DNA of 7,929 nt from Candidatus Micrarchaeaceae archaeon (lineage in GTDB: Archaea; Micrarchaeota; Micrarchaeia; Micrarchaeales; CABMGC01), in the NCBI GenBank assembly GCA_038873795.1, contig JAVZDR010000025.1, positions 1 to 7,929 on the forward strand, in the 5' to 3' direction. Positions 1 to 5,472 of the stretch are shown one piece after another (within the stretch, counting starts at the first letter, position 1; each line of letters opens with the position of its first letter). A model generated the notes under the pieces. The model saw nothing but the letters and a program-made list of their open reading frames with translations. It was not told the DNA's origin and made no database searches. The translations under genes were made by a program, and so were the position numbers.

Positions 1-101
1 TGCAGGGGGAGAGATTTGAACTCTCGAAGGCCTAAGCCACAGGATCTTAAGTCCTGCGCATTTTTCTGTGGCTGAACCAGACCAGACTCTGCCACCCCTG
101 C
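1..101 (-). tRNA. tRNA-Leu (anticodon TAA) with an intron in the D-loop
   Basis: Reverse complement gives acceptor stem GCAGGGG/CCCCTGC plus discriminator A, anticodon arm CAGGA-CTTAAGA-TCCTG (anticodon 47-49), long variable arm (GGC-TTAG-GCC) and T arm GAGAG-TTCAAAT-CTCTC. The D-loop is oversized by an insertion. The window edge hides whether CCA is encoded. Confidence 0.95.
63..80 (-). other. 18-nt non-canonical tRNA intron (about position 20/21) with a bulge-helix-bulge motif
   Basis: TCTG-[GT^C]-TGG-TTCAG-CCA-CAGA-[AA^A]: 4-bp helix TCTG/CAGA with 3-nt bulges and an inner TGG/CCA stem. Removal restores a normal D arm, GCAGAGTCTGGTAATGC. Confidence 0.8.
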
Positions 102-963: not shown

Positions 964-999
964 ATATATAAACTTATCATGGACAGATACTATCGGTGA
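964..999 (+). promoter_or_regulatory. Putative TATA box (ATATATAAA, 964-972) and SD (GGTGA, 995-999) of the small basic protein gene
   Basis: Archaeal TATA consensus, then GGTGA followed by 4 nt and ATG 1004. Confidence 0.5.
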
Positions 1000-1003
1000 A
1001 TAA

Positions 1004-1243
1004 ATGGCCGAAAGAATAGGAAAGGAAAGAATAGATAGAGAAGATGGTTATCTATATTTCCTAGGCAAGGACGGCTACGTATGGCGCACACCAATGAAGG
1101 CAAACACCCGCGGAAAGAAAGCGCGAGTAGGAAACGAGAAGATATCCAGGGAAGAAGGATACCTCTACTTCATAGACAAGAACGGATACGTAGCAAGATC
1201 TAAGATGAACAGAAGGGGAAGATTGGCAAGGCGAAGGAGATAG
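1004..1243 (+). CDS. Small basic two-repeat protein, Cc1-like putative chromatin/nucleic-acid-binding protein, 79 aa
   Basis: Internal repeat ERIGKERIDREDGYLYFLGKDGYVWRTPM / ARVGNEKISREEGYLYFIDKNGYVARSKM, Arg-rich tail, own TATA, SD and T-rich terminator. The Cc1 assignment comes from recalled similarity of the YLYF.DK.G motif, not a search. Confidence 0.7.
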   Translation: MAERIGKERIDREDGYLYFLGKDGYVWRTPMKANTRGKKARVGNEKISREEGYLYFIDKNGYVARSKMNRRGRLARRRR

Positions 1244-1484: not shown

Positions 1485-1543
1485 ACGCATATCTTTATAT
1501 ATTTTGACAAATAAACTTATATCTTCGCTATTAGGGTGATTAT

Positions 1544-1711
1544 ATAGCATCACTTCCGGGTAAGGTATGCAGCTCATGTGGCAAGCTTACAGACGAATAT
1601 GTTGAATTCTTGTGCCCAAAGTGCGGCAAGGCAAAGATCGTGCGGTGCAACCACTGCAGGGAAACATACGCGATATATAGATGCCCCGAATGCGGATTTG
1701 AGGGACCCTGA
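1544..1711 (+). CDS. Zinc-finger microprotein (HVO_2753/DUF1610-like, four CxxC motifs), 55 aa, probable ATA start; absent from the ORF track
   Basis: Translates as (I/M)ASLPGKVCSSCGKLTDEYVEFLCPKCGKAKIVRCNHCRETYAIYRCPECGFEGP*, with the family's C-terminal CPECGFEGP. It occupies the conserved position directly upstream of aEF-1beta (TGATG overlap at 1709-1713). SD GGTGA at 1535-1539. Confidence 0.92.
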   Translation: MASLPGKVCSSCGKLTDEYVEFLCPKCGKAKIVRCNHCRETYAIYRCPECGFEGP

Positions 1712-1956
1712 TGGCCAAAGTGGGCATTATATTCAAGGTTTACCCAGAAGCTGGAAAAGAGGAGGAGCTTAGCAAGCTCATCTCTGAGAGGATGAAGCCG
1801 CAGGGCATACAGATAAGTGACGTCGCATTTGGAATAAAGATAATAAAGGTGCTCTTTGTAAGGGAGGACGAAGAAGGCAGCAGCAAGCTTGAGGAGGAGC
1901 TCAAGAAACTGCCTAACGTAAGCGAGGTAGAGGTTGAGGAGGAGAGCCTTCTATAG
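1711..1956 (+). CDS. ef1b: Archaeal translation elongation factor 1-beta, 81 aa
   Basis: MAKV..IFKVYPE N-terminus, DVAFGIKII motif, acidic C-terminal VSEVEV, typical size and synteny with the zinc-finger gene. Confidence 0.92.
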   Translation: MAKVGIIFKVYPEAGKEEELSKLISERMKPQGIQISDVAFGIKIIKVLFVREDEEGSSKLEEELKKLPNVSEVEVEEESLL

Positions 1957-2422
1957 CGCGCATTATCCTTCTAACGCGCCTGAACCTTCTTTCTATAGCA
2001 TCCCAGTGCGTGCCATGCCAGTATATCCTGCCGCATTTTGTGCATGTATAGAATTTTCTATGCATCTTGTACGCTCTTTCAGGTACCTTTGAACGCACAT
2101 ATCCTTTGCTTACACTACGCAGCTTTATATTGCATACTGGGCAGATCATCGATGGTATTGTAGATATCTTCAGGCCAAGGCTCTTCATTACAAATGCAAT
2201 CTGGCTGTCTAAGTCTTTTTGGCTTACCAGAAGCACCCTGAAGCGCCGCCTGCCAGCACGCTCAGCCAGTCTCCTGTCTGCGGTTATAAGCAGCGCATGC
2301 CTGTGCTTCACAAAGCGTATCACTGCACTGTCGTCAGAGCCCTGCGCATCTTGGATTGGAATGCCAGCTAGCCTGAGCCACCTTGCAAGCTTAGCCATCA
2401 TTACGTCAGCAACAAGCCTCAT
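1913..2422 (-). CDS. Mut7-C RNase domain protein (PIN fold plus Zn ribbon), 169 aa
   Basis: MRLVADVMMAKLARWLRLAG, DD, LITADRRL, CPVCN...CTKCGRIYWHGTHW. The start was moved to ATG 2422, where the family begins. Confidence 0.9.
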   Translation of the reverse strand: MRLVADVMMAKLARWLRLAGIPIQDAQGSDDSAVIRFVKHRHALLITADRRLAERAGRRRFRVLLVSQKDLDSQIAFVMKSLGLKISTIPSMICPVCNIKLRSVSKGYVRSKVPERAYKMHRKFYTCTKCGRIYWHGTHWDAIERRFRRVRRIMRAIEGSPPQPLPRLR

Positions 2423-2487
2423 GATAACCTTACAGCAATAAGCTATAAAAACATAAGAAGGCATATTCTAATGCTAATTGTGAGCGG
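2423..2487. promoter_or_regulatory. Divergent promoter region between Mut7-C and the Rad50-like gene
   Basis: 65-nt AT-rich spacer with TATAAAAA at 2444-2451 (TTTTTATA on minus) and GTGA-N4-ATG before 2488. Confidence 0.45.
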
Positions 2488-4794
2488 ATGATAAGAAGCA
2501 TACACCTCTCAAACTGGAAGACGCACAGCGATACAACCCTTCATTTCACCAGGGGCACAAACATACTCATAGGCATGATGGGCGCTGGAAAGAGCTCTGT
2601 GCTTGATGCGATATCATTTGCGCTCTTTGGCACATATCCGGCCCTGCAGCACAAACGCACAAGTATTGAAAACATAATAACAAACAGGCCCGCTCAGAAG
2701 GAAAGCGCAAGCGTGAGGCTTGAATTCACAATTGATGGCAAAGAGTATGCGGTGGAAAGGACCATATCAAGGAATGGTATGACGCAGGCAACCCTCACCA
2801 GAGATGGAGCATACCTTCAGTCACAGCCAAAGCGCGTAACAGAGGAAATAAGCAAAATACTACATGTAGACTATGACCTCTTCTCAAGGGTTGTCTACTC
2901 CGAGCAGAACAGGCTCGATTACTTTCTTGAACTTTCAGCTTCACAAAGGAAGGAGCAGATAGACGAGCTTCTGGGCATCGACAGATTCAGCATAGCTTCA
3001 GAGAACATAACAACTCTGATAAACAGGATAAAGGATATGATTTCTGATCAGGAAAAGGTTCTTGCAAATCTAGACATAGGCAAGGTCGAGGCTCAGCTCA
3101 AGGCGCTTGAAGACGAAAAATCCAAACTTCTTAATGAGCAACGCAGGATAGAGGCAGCACTGGAAAGTGCAAGCGCAAAGGCGGCAGCTGCAGAGAAGAT
3201 GCTCAGCGAAGGAATGGCCTCATACAGGGCCAAGCAGGCTATTGAGAGCGAGATAGCAGCAATAAATAGCAGGCTCGAATTCGCCAAAAAGGAGATAGAG
3301 AAAATAGATGCAAAGAAGCTTGGGAGCAAGGAAGAACTTGAGAAGCAGCTCAGTATAATTGAGCGGAGCGTCGATGCTCTCAAAAAGAGCGAAAGAGACC
3401 TAGCCGAGGCAGAGCGCACAAGCCAGGGAAAGCTTTCACGGCTCGAAGCGAGTATAGATGAGCTAAAGAAAAAAGCGTCAGAAAGGAATAAGCTACTCGA
3501 AGAAATGCGTGGCAAAAGCCTTGAGCAGCTGCAGGCTGAAGCCGAGGCTGCGCTCAAGTCACAGCAGGATCTTGAGGAGAAAATTGCATACCACAAAATG
3601 CAGAAGAGTGATGCTGAGAAGTGGGCATCAGAGCTTGAGAAGCATATAAGCAAATGCCCTCTCTGCGAGCGGGACCTGACAGATGATGCAAGGATAAGAC
3701 TGCTCAGGGGCAAGGAGCAGCTCATCAAGCTCTCAAACGAGATGCTTGCAAAGCTCTCATCAGATCTAAAAACTGCTAAGGAGAAAGTTGCGGCGCTCAA
3801 CGAGGAAATGGGAAGGCTGAAACTCAGCGCGCTCAGGCTCAACGACTACAAGGGCATTGACGAAGAGCTCTCAAGCATGGAAGAATCGCTTAAGCTGCTC
3901 TCAAAGGAGCATGAGGCAATTAAAAAAGAGCACGACGAAAAAAGTGCAGAGCTGAACGAGATAAATGGAAAGATGCTCAGCTTGAAGAATTCAATAGATA
4001 CGCTTTCCAGGAAAAGCTCCTATGAGAGGGAAATTTCTGAGGGCCAGAAGAGGCTAAAAGAGAGAATTGAGGAAAGGGAGATGATAAAGGTGGATGCGGC
4101 GGCAATCGATGCTCTGCAGAAAGCATTTGCATCAGAAAAGTCCGCCTATGAGAAGGCAAAATCAGAGAAAGAATCCTATGAAAAGCTGCTCAAGGAAAAG
4201 GAGGCTCAGATAGAGGATAGAAAAGGGCAGATAAATACGATAAACAAGATAAATGCAGAGGTAGCCAGCAAGAAGAAGGCTCTTGAAAACCTTATAAAAT
4301 TCAAGAATTCGCTCGGTGAGGCGCAGGTATCGCTCAGGACTAAGCTAATAGACGCGATAAATGGCGTAATGGCTGAAGTATGGCCCGAAATATACCCTTA
4401 TGGCGACTACAGCAGCCTTGCGCTTGATGCTACTGGTAACGACTACGAGCTTAAGTTGAAGTTCAAGACCGAGAGTGGTGAACGCTGGGAAAGTGTCGAG
4501 ACCGTAGCAAGTGGCGGGGAGCGCAGCATTGCATGCCTTGCGATGCGTGTAGCATTTGCGCTTGTGCTTGTGCCCAACCTGAGGTGGATCATACTAGATG
4601 AGCCTACTCACAATATCGACCAGAAAGGCCTCAGCAGGTTCATTCACATCTTCAACGAAACCCTACCTAAGATAGTCGACCAAATCTTCATAATAACCCA
4701 CGACGAAATACTCAAGCAGGTGAGCAATGCAAATATATACCTGCTGGAAAGGAACAAGGAAGAGAACGAGCCCACATCTGTAGAGCAGCTTTAA
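2488..4794 (+). CDS. rad50: Rad50/SbcC-like SMC-family ATPase with zinc hook, 768 aa
   Basis: Walker A GMMGAGKSS, Q-loop YSEQ, long coiled coils, central CPLC hook (aa 390-393, nt 3655-3666), signature ASGGE, Walker B/D-loop ILDEPTHNID, H-loop ITHD. Confidence 0.88.
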   Translation: MIRSIHLSNWKTHSDTTLHFTRGTNILIGMMGAGKSSVLDAISFALFGTYPALQHKRTSIENIITNRPAQKESASVRLEFTIDGKEYAVERTISRNGMTQATLTRDGAYLQSQPKRVTEEISKILHVDYDLFSRVVYSEQNRLDYFLELSASQRKEQIDELLGIDRFSIASENITTLINRIKDMISDQEKVLANLDIGKVEAQLKALEDEKSKLLNEQRRIEAALESASAKAAAAEKMLSEGMASYRAKQAIESEIAAINSRLEFAKKEIEKIDAKKLGSKEELEKQLSIIERSVDALKKSERDLAEAERTSQGKLSRLEASIDELKKKASERNKLLEEMRGKSLEQLQAEAEAALKSQQDLEEKIAYHKMQKSDAEKWASELEKHISKCPLCERDLTDDARIRLLRGKEQLIKLSNEMLAKLSSDLKTAKEKVAALNEEMGRLKLSALRLNDYKGIDEELSSMEESLKLLSKEHEAIKKEHDEKSAELNEINGKMLSLKNSIDTLSRKSSYEREISEGQKRLKERIEEREMIKVDAAAIDALQKAFASEKSAYEKAKSEKESYEKLLKEKEAQIEDRKGQINTINKINAEVASKKKALENLIKFKNSLGEAQVSLRTKLIDAINGVMAEVWPEIYPYGDYSSLALDATGNDYELKLKFKTESGERWESVETVASGGERSIACLAMRVAFALVLVPNLRWIILDEPTHNIDQKGLSRFIHIFNETLPKIVDQIFIITHDEILKQVSNANIYLLERNKEENEPTSVEQL

Positions 4795-5444
4795 GCCTTC
4801 TTTGCGGCTTCAAGCACATACTCGAGAAACTGGGGCTCTGGTAGCGCGCCCTCAAATGAAACATCATCGTTTATGACAACCTTTGGCACAGCCATTACTG
4901 CATACTTTTCGGCATATTCAGGGAATTCCATAGATTCTATCATACTGCTCCTTATGTTGCTGTTCTCCATCGCGAATTGGTGCGCAGTCCTGACAGCCCT
5001 TGGGCACCATGGGCACGTGGGCGTGACAAAGACCTTTATGTCAAGCTTGCCTTTTATCCCCTTTAGCGCGCTTTTAGTGCTCTCAGCAAGTCTTGTCCTG
5101 TTGTTAGACGCATCCATTATATCTTCGAGCAGTGCACTGAATTCATGGCCTGCTGGTATGCCAAAATAAAATACGTTGTATATTTTGGCGCCGCCTATTA
5201 CTATTGCTGGGGTCCTCTCAATGCCAAGGAATGCAGCCTCCCTCTTGTTGATATTAACATCATATACGGTCAGCTTTATCTTATCGCTGAGCTTTGAGAC
5301 TTCTGTAAGTAATTCGAGAGTTTCTTTGCAGTACTGGCACTTGTCTTGGGTATCGGTGAAGAGCATTATATTAACATTGCCCGTCAGATTCTTGTCAAAT
5401 ATCTCCTTTATTTCTTTTCTATCCTTGTCTTTTAGAAACTCTAT
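4791..5444 (-). CDS. Protein disulfide oxidoreductase (two thioredoxin folds, PDO/AhpF-NTD-like), 217 aa, probable ATA start
   Basis: Active sites CQYC and CPWC, GIPAGHEF, AVPK, FEGALPE. The frame stays open 26 codons upstream of the ORF-track ATG (5366), giving (I/M)EFLKDKDRKEIKEIFDKNLTGNVNIMLF, which resembles the PDO N-terminal helix. SD GGTGA at 5449-5453; in-frame TAG at 5454-5456. Confidence 0.9.
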   Translation of the reverse strand: MEFLKDKDRKEIKEIFDKNLTGNVNIMLFTDTQDKCQYCKETLELLTEVSKLSDKIKLTVYDVNINKREAAFLGIERTPAIVIGGAKIYNVFYFGIPAGHEFSALLEDIMDASNNRTRLAESTKSALKGIKGKLDIKVFVTPTCPWCPRAVRTAHQFAMENSNIRSSMIESMEFPEYAEKYAVMAVPKVVINDDVSFEGALPEPQFLEYVLEAAKKA

Positions 5445-5472
5445 GTTCTCACCCTAAAATATAACAACATTT

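Follow-up and report, generated by a model that had tools for sequence, protein, structure and literature searches.

Probable AUA start codons behind strong Shine-Dalgarno motifs in an order of Micrarchaeota-type archaea

In Escherichia coli, infC (encoding IF3) and pcnB have AUU start codons, and mitochondria (genetic code tables 2, 3, and 5) use AUA starts, with AUA meaning Met genome-wide. Here we analyze a contig of 7,929 nucleotides from a Candidatus Micrarchaeaceae archaeon (GenBank JAVZDR010000025.1; the window, which is the entire contig, from a 600 kb genome in 55 contigs that is 94% complete by marker genes), on which two genes, encoding a zinc-ribbon micro-protein and a protein disulfide oxidoreductase (PDO), appear to start at ATA behind a strong Shine-Dalgarno (SD) motif. 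The literature on archaea, cited here and below from the available portions of each source, describes SD pre-positioning, local scanning, and proofreading by aIF1 (PMC6237735), gives AUG, GUG, and UUG as start codons, with 0 occurrences of AUA and CUG (a 2020 review, PMC7531240), and reports CTG at 5% of the new small open reading frames (ORFs) found by Ribo-seq in Methanosarcina mazei (PMC11456600). In eukaryotes, near-cognate initiation (CUG, ACG) is under eIF1 control (PMC4705826). A literature search for AUA starts in archaea or Micrarchaeota and for non-canonical archaeal start codons found no paper.

The original prediction, made from the letters of the window, was that this lineage may routinely initiate at AUA, compensated by a strong SD. 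We compared the genome holding the window (G000) with its sister genome (G001), two complete relatives (G018 and G039), and further genomes; the gene set of G000 (~560 genes) came from a self-trained codon model and not from a validated caller. Judging from ortholog alignments, we consider it probable that both ATAs are genuine start codons and instances of a habit, common to a whole lineage of Micrarchaeota-type archaea, by which ~1% of genes begin at non-canonical codons whose position is defined by the SD.

ATA at the start of two genes

The features on which the argument turns are the following (window positions, strand).

1535..1539, +, SD core GGTGA of the zinc-ribbon gene, inside TTAGGGTGA (1531-1539), with the in-frame stop TAG at 1532-1534
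1544..1546, +, probable ATA start codon of the zinc-ribbon gene, placed by ortholog alignment and read in public contigs
1544..1711, +, coding sequence of the zinc-ribbon micro-protein, 55 aa, HVO_2753 family, stop TGA at 1709-1711
4791..5444, -, coding sequence of the PDO, 217 aa, CQYC and CPWC in its two thioredoxin-like halves
5364..5366, -, first in-frame ATG of the PDO frame, residue 27, 26 codons past the ATA
5442..5444, -, probable ATA start codon of the PDO gene, placed by ortholog alignment and read in public contigs
5449..5453, -, SD core GGTGA of the PDO gene, inside TTAGGGTGA (5457-5449), with the in-frame stop TAG at 5456-5454

The two sites read TTAGGGTGA-ttat-ATA-GCA at 1531-1549 (+) for the zinc-ribbon gene and TTAGGGTGA-gaac-ATA-GAG at 5457-5439 (-) for the PDO gene (1531-1547 and 5457-5441 when counted through ATA-G). 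In both genes the TAG within the motif is the in-frame upstream stop, the frames being TAG GGT GAT TAT ATA GCA and TAG GGT GAG AAC ATA GAG, respectively. GGTGA-N4-ATA is found twice in the window against 0.10 expected (0/200 shuffles gave 2), and the 17-nt pattern twice against 0.00 expected. The two genes had been said to share the whole motif. Both sites are present as described, but the sister genome carries TATAGGTGAGAGC-ATA and CAAGGTGATTAT-ATA, so conservation covers only GGTGA-N4-ATA and extends neither to the whole 9-mer TTAGGGTGA nor to the trailing G. Neither gene has an ATG, GTG, or TTG between the upstream in-frame stop and its homology-defined N-terminus, and the Pfam domains of both begin upstream of the first canonical codon.

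The letters themselves are secure: public contigs from three runs of three studies, one of which may be the source sample, span 1544-1546 and 5442-5444 and all read ATA, with no other letter. No RNA run was listed among those that contain the region. A G at the third base, which would have undone the prediction, was therefore not encountered, and the same ATA recurs in separately assembled genomes of other genera, near-complete ones included.

The gene at 1544-1711 encodes a zinc-finger micro-protein of the HVO_2753 family and lies upstream of the gene for aEF-1 beta. Its four CxxC motifs are CSSC, CPKC, CNHC, and CPEC, and it matches PF07754 with 54.2 bits (cut-off 33.2), with the whole profile (positions 1-46 of 46) covered by residues 9-51. 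A TTG beyond the first CxxC is the first canonical codon in frame. Among 30 orthologs, the aligned start codon is ATA in 14, ATC in one, ATG in 14, and TTG in one. A wider named genome collection (Iain-, Woese-, Nano-, and Aenigmatarchaeota, methanogens, and others) yielded 80 zinc-ribbon loci, among which ATA at SD+4 was seen only in the two nearest relatives, one without a canonical start before the first Cys and the other also having a TTG 5 codons before it; in the remaining 78 the start is canonical and for the most part ATG. This makes the feature specific to the order. A deletion mutant of a gene of this family in Haloferax volcanii has a swarming defect (PMC10716476).

The gene at 4791-5444 encodes a two-domain protein disulfide oxidoreductase with one CxxC per thioredoxin-like unit. 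Thioredoxin_3 matches the protein in two stretches, and matches to the thioredoxin family begin at residue 13, upstream of the first ATG; the name PDO follows usage in work on Pyrococcus. Relatives of the same order align from residues 1-4 onward. In 20 orthologs, the codon aligned with the ATA is ATG, GTG, or TTG in 15, ATA in 3 (G000, G001, and G014), and an ATG lies one codon away in the other 2; on the tree, the ATA marks a single clade, (G014,(G000,G001)). A caller limited to ATG, GTG, and TTG would begin the gene at 5366 and lose 26 conserved residues.

Alignment with the Met1 codons of orthologs, which the original prediction had named as a check, thus bears out the use of AUA as a start codon: canonical starts stand opposite the ATA in 15/20 PDO and 15/30 zinc-ribbon orthologs, and the ATA state recurs in the lineage.

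The zinc-ribbon gene leads directly into its neighbor.

1711..1956, +, coding sequence of aEF-1 beta, PF00736 EF1_GNE match

The zinc-ribbon stop and the ATG of the aEF-1 beta gene overlap by one base (TGATG, window 1709-1713). Because of this overlap, translation of aEF-1 beta is probably coupled to that of the ATA-started gene and may depend on initiation at ATA.

Shine-Dalgarno spacing and strength

Genes of the window with ATG starts had been said to use the same spacing, and both sites named are correct.

995..1006, +, GGTGA-ataa-ATG of a 79-aa ORF, canonical start for comparison
2480..2490, +, GTGA-gcgg-ATG of a Rad50-like gene, canonical start for comparison

This is the preferred spacing of the genome as a whole: for SDs of ≥5 nt before the first canonical starts of the ~560 genes, 58 of the 91 spacer hits (spacers 0-12) fall at GGTGA-N4, where both ATA genes have theirs. 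The 16S 3' tail, taken from four relatives (the rRNA of G000 runs off contig C50, leaving its own 16S 3' end unassembled), ends in ...GATCACCTC, the complement of GAGGTGATC, and GGTGA is complementary to it. At the exact GGTGA-N4 site at or upstream of the first canonical start (n = 81), 58 codons are canonical (ATG 37, TTG 12, GTG 9) and 23 are not (CTG 4, ATA 2, GCG 2, TAT 2, then singles); CTG and ATA together make up 6 of these 23 against a background of 5.7% (p = 0.0015). In a genome-wide tally of the triplet after GGTGA, which had been proposed as a check, CTG and ATA lead the non-canonical codons when gene context is used, but a context-free count shows no excess of ATA.

The 16S genes of G000 (C50:27-1887, -), G001 (C6:7140-9136), and G039 (C1:160069-162075) exceed the model, and also the genes of G018 and G003, by ~500 nt. 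The excess in G000 falls between model positions 830 and 1343, which suggests an rRNA intron or insertion.

The start codon of the zinc-ribbon gene covaries with its SD. A full GGTGA precedes 13 of the 15 ATA/ATC starts and 1 of the 15 ATG/TTG starts (Fisher p = 2e-5, the genomes not being independent); the latter mostly have AGTGA or a weaker SD. On a tree of 25 genomes built from nine proteins (G037, G026, G027, and G040 excluded for lack of data, and G038, which is unpublished, also left out), the start type switches at least 7 times. In 4-5 of six independent pairs, the ATA member has the stronger SD; over 200 random pairings, the number of pairs with the weaker SD on the ATA side averaged 0.0, one such pair appearing in 4 pairings. 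The compensation by a strong SD that had been proposed thus agrees with the pattern in the orthologs. So many flips suggest that it makes little difference whether a gene has ATA behind a strong SD or ATG behind a weak one. Small populations, where a mutated start codon can become fixed and be compensated later, fit this pattern; low expression may also have been selected for.

We infer initiation at these codons, insertion of Met, and compensation of expression by the SD from comparison of sequences, and propose the following mechanism. GGUGA(U) would pair with the 16S 3' tail (AUCACC) and place the codon 4 nt downstream in the P site, where the ordinary initiator Met-tRNA (CAU) could pair with AUA, AUC, or AUU by a third-base mismatch and with CUG by a first-base mismatch. 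The weak codon would lower initiation, and a full-length SD at optimal spacing would offset the loss. Because the SD would make up for the weak codon, ATA with a strong SD would be roughly interchangeable with ATG and a weaker one, and lineages could flip between the two states.

Odd starts and the initiation machinery across the order

A three-way blastp census of stop-to-stop frames from G000, G018, and G039 put seven of the odd-start genes of G000, the PDO gene included, at the top of the G000 list, and each further candidate was compared against relatives. In addition to the two genes of the window, the candidates in G000 are the following.

C39:1820, membrane protein, TAGGTG-N5-ATA; ATG in G001
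C2:13264, CoA-binding protein, GGTGG-N4-CTG; ATG in G001, first canonical codon 30 residues into the Pfam domain
C13:13259, uS17, ggtgatTTAG-CTG with a stop directly upstream; among 30 loci, TTG in 13, ATG/GTG in 3, CTG in 3, the others starting a few codons upstream
C6:3006, ABC ATPase, 886 aa, AGGGTG-N5-CTG; Walker A lies before the first canonical codon, and the sole ortholog has ATG one codon on
C11:9445, coiled-coil protein, GGCGAT-TCA-CTG; GGCGAT-T(C/T)A-CTG is kept in G001, G017, and G022, and G018 has CTG behind a weaker SD
C2:35215, GT87-like protein, CTG; less certain
C2:5902, Spt5, GGT GAT TTT GCG; among 30 relatives, ATG in 12, GTG in 11, TTG in 4, GCG in 3

Odd starts thus concern ~9 of ~560 genes (about 1.5%; ATA three times, CTG five times, and GCG on Spt5), or ~9 of the ~67 strong-SD starts. 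For the ABC ATPase, the matches in relatives were mostly paralogs and one ortholog was usable. The 886-aa protein itself (C6:3006-5666) is a fusion in which a phosphoribosyltransferase domain (Pfam Pribosyltran, residues 595-730) accompanies two ABC ATPase domains, and its ortholog was found only in G031. The GCG of Spt5 is shared by G000, G001, and, in a separate clade, the complete genome G018. In G000 no canonical codon follows for 33 further codons past the GCG, and the Spt5-NGN profile begins at residue 2 of the GCG-started protein; the transcript start could not be placed, the divergent intergenic region being just 39 nt long.

Odd starts are fewer in the two complete relatives. In G018, eS6 appears to start at GAGGTG-N5-ATA, opposite a TTG in G000 and an ATG in G039, and a Nudix-like gene may start at ATC. 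In G039, UppS has an ATA directly behind a stop and no canonical codon for 142 codons, ATT or ATA follows AAGTGATC in the ortholog of the C39 gene, and ATA may also be the start of a LemA-like gene. The habit would accordingly span the order, at roughly 0.4-1.6% of genes by these comparisons. Two further cases were set aside or left in doubt. Conservation upstream of the ATG of G018_631 / C4:30875 is probably due to a tRNA-like RNA element, and for G018_85, where a CTG stands opposite an ATG of G000, the upstream conservation could stem from an overlapping gene. The tRNA-like element, which scores 28 bits with Rfam tRNA (below cut-off), is found just upstream of a small conserved gene at G000 C4:30912-30970 and near C1:245012 (-) in G018, and resembles a conserved N-terminal extension in a stop-to-stop comparison.

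This census narrows the original prediction in three respects. Initiation at AUA is not routine, given the ~9 genes in G000 and the smaller numbers in the complete relatives. Nor is the habit specific to AUA, with CTG the commoner odd start in G000 and GCG at the start position of Spt5. A regulatory class of AUA genes had also been suggested; we see no sign of one, because the affected genes are functionally mixed.

Changes in the initiator tRNA or in initiation factors had been put forward as the cause, and those examined look ordinary. G000 yielded a single CAU tRNA; with A1:U72, GGG/CCC in its anticodon stem, and a normal loop, it is an ordinary initiator. aIF1 is present with its zinc knuckle kept, matches the solved Methanocaldococcus jannaschii factor at 3e-27, and has the basic loop KRKFMK (KRRFGK in that factor). 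Its gene starts at ATG in 29 of the 30 loci listed; in the 30th, an ATG precedes the aligned codon by two codons. Loss of aIF1 or a weak aIF1 start was rejected as a cause on these grounds. The leader of the aIF1 gene is itself conserved in most of 30 genomes as (G/A)AGAGGTG(C/T)-N6-(C/G)TA-ATG (C8:16606-16640 in G000, and 29 relatives). It places the SD ~10 nt from the ATG, where 5 after GGTG is usual, and could be regulatory for the gene of this fidelity factor.

A tRNA with the anticodon UAU occurs in G000 (C3:38854-38929), where it shares its acceptor and T arms with tRNA-Ile(GAU), and tRNA-Ile(UAU) is found in G018 (C1:306468-306545) and G039 (C1:251946-252021) as well. The complete G039 has just two CAU tRNAs, the initiator and the elongator Met. 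Because AUA is decoded by a genomic UAU tRNA-Ile and G039 lacks a third CAU tRNA, the usual archaeal agmatidine (TiaS) route seems unused in the order; TiaS itself was not searched for. A further proposed check concerned internal ATA codons, and those of four genes (n = 40) behave as the prediction required, with ortholog residues that are L, V, or I in 77% and M in 6%. When introns are allowed, ARAGORN also predicts a tRNA with an intron (labelled Phe GAA) at 1-101 (-) of the window, reaching the contig edge.

Sua5/YrdC (PF01300), which acts in t6A synthesis, was detected in only 20 of 41 genomes; G000, G001, G014, and G018 are among those where it was not. It is missing also from several near-complete genomes, among them the one-contig G018 and the three-contig G030 and G035, and Kae1 is only partly assembled in G000. 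The nearly universal tRNA modification t6A may have been lost repeatedly in the order. We rejected such loss as a necessary cause of the odd starts: the ATA/ATC and the ATG/TTG states of the zinc-ribbon gene each include 7 genomes with Sua5 and 8 without, and the Sua5-positive G039 has clear ATA starts.

Alternative explanations and comparison with known systems

Several observations weigh against near-cognate starts positioned by the SD. The GCG of Spt5, two mismatches from AUG, is a poor fit to a near-cognate model. The seven one-mismatch codons as a class are not enriched at the GGTGA-N4 site (6/23 vs 15.8%, p = 0.14), and the context-free tally shows no excess of ATA there (13 vs 8-15 at other in-frame spacings), a count that is uninformative because GGT GAx is common within genes. 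The sign test on independent pairs gives only p = 0.0625, the few pairs allowing no lower value. Canonical alternatives lie near some of the zinc-ribbon ATAs (a TTG 5 codons before the Cys in G014, a GTG within the SD in G033), and uS17 of G001 has a TTG/GTG upstream. The G at +4 is not specific: it is present in 8 of the 9 odd starts of G000 against a 40% baseline, and in the zinc-ribbon orthologs it is equally common after ATG/TTG (10/15) and ATA/ATC (11/15). The self-trained gene set itself overlooked the zinc ribbon, and the tests were made post hoc on genomes related to one another.

The Spt5 gene also motivates an account in which proofreading is relaxed and the SD duplex outweighs codon-anticodon pairing, so that almost any codon at GGTGA-N4, GCG included, can start a gene. 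Stringency would then have changed at the level of the lineage, which goes beyond tolerance of a few weak codons. GCG stands exactly where 27 of 30 relatives have ATG, GTG, or TTG, in two separate clades (G000 with G001, and G018), with the Spt5-NGN profile beginning at residue 2; in G018 no one-mismatch codon lies between the upstream stop and the GCG, but a GTG 4 codons downstream could serve there. First-base (CTG) and third-base (ATA, ATC, ATT) variants both occur, and the ~9 non-canonical codons among ~67 strong-SD starts point the same way, whereas the second-base variants ACG, AAG, and AGG were not seen at the GGTGA-N4 site, 58 of its 81 codons are still canonical, and other non-canonical codons there (TAT, CCT, etc.) look like chance SD matches inside upstream frames. 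aIF1, moreover, has been retained in conserved form, zinc knuckle and basic loop included. Taken together, we find this account distinctly unlikely. A related statement, that in Micrarchaeales the SD duplex is now the main determinant of the start site, with proofreading relaxed and even GCG (on Spt5, arisen twice) working as a start, we likewise hold to be unlikely. If relaxed proofreading were true, start-codon stringency would be an evolvable, lineage-specific trait of archaea, and DPANN proteomes would be systematically mis-annotated at their N-termini.

Editing of the mRNA could in principle restore a canonical codon, by A-to-I conversion (AUA read as AUG) or C-to-U conversion (CUG to UUG, GCG to GUG), and a single C-to-U activity would make both CUG and GCG canonical. 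It would nevertheless take two different chemistries to cover all cases, the strengthening of the SD alongside ATA would be superfluous if the codon were restored, and we know of no start-codon mRNA editing in archaea; we consider it very improbable. Small symbiont genomes do decay, and the proteins might instead begin at the next downstream canonical codon, the ATG at 5366 in the PDO frame and the TTG in the zinc-ribbon frame, with the upstream frame a decaying remnant. This too has very little to recommend it: a start at the TTG, past the first of the four CxxC motifs, would cost the protein its zinc site; in the PDO, the 26 residues ahead of the ATG belong to the thioredoxin fold and are conserved in 20 genomes; the same states persist with intact frames across an order-level radiation; and core genes (uS17, eS6, Spt5, UppS) are affected too. 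Reassignment of AUA to Met, or its reading at starts by a special UAU tRNA as in mitochondria, could draw on the UAU tRNA of G000, G018, and G039 and on the missing third CAU tRNA in complete G039. That tRNA, however, has G1:C72 and acceptor and T arms like those of tRNA-Ile(GAU), without the A1:U72 and GGG/CCC marks of an initiator; internal ATA codons align with L/V/I and seldom with M (77% and 6%), and the CTG and GCG starts would be left unexplained. We give reassignment almost no credence, and an assembly or sequencing error hiding a true G is just as hard to credit, given the ATA read at both sites in the contigs of three studies and in separately assembled genomes of other genera.

With SD-positioned near-cognate starts as the probable explanation, conserved and mostly housekeeping genes (uS17, eS6, Spt5, UppS, the zinc ribbon, and the disulfide oxidoreductase) would start at AUA, CUG, AUC, or possibly GCG across a DPANN order. 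The repeated ATA/ATG flips with matching SD changes would amount to a natural experiment on the trade-off between SD and start codon in a eukaryote-like initiation system. Standard gene finders likely shorten or miss such genes; callers limited to ATG, GTG, and TTG would truncate or drop ~1% of genes in these genomes, marker genes for phylogeny and completeness included.

Archaeal initiation as published resembles these cases in being SD-led, with a locally positioned start codon and some CTG precedent; the new small ORFs of M. mazei differ in that the cases here are conserved genes of known families. Eukaryotic near-cognate initiation shares the homologous factor core (e/aIF1, e/aIF1A, e/aIF2) and a favourable context that offsets a weak codon, whereas here an SD duplex takes the place of the Kozak context, there is no scanning, and the +4 G is unspecific. 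Mitochondria likewise have AUA gene starts in very small genomes, but AUA within the genes studied here behaves as an Ile codon, with a tRNA-Ile(UAU) of its own. The alternative starts of NCBI table 11 include ATA, ATT, and CTG; unlike these bacterial cases, ours occur in a DPANN order, where one gene has changed between ATA and ATG at least 7 times and the strength of the SD follows the codon. E. coli infC and pcnB share with our cases a conserved third-base near-cognate start behind an SD, a normal initiator tRNA, reduced or tunable initiation, and a tendency to be missed by callers. The weak codon of infC serves the autoregulation of a fidelity factor, whereas here the fidelity factor aIF1 is ATG-started in 29 of the 30 loci listed, with a nearby ATG in the 30th, and is not among the genes with a weak codon; the affected genes are mutually unrelated, the codons are AUA and CUG, and initiation is of the archaeal aIF1/aIF1A/aIF2 type. 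SD-led near-cognate starts would be, in this comparison, a new archaeal form of a mode of initiation known from bacteria.

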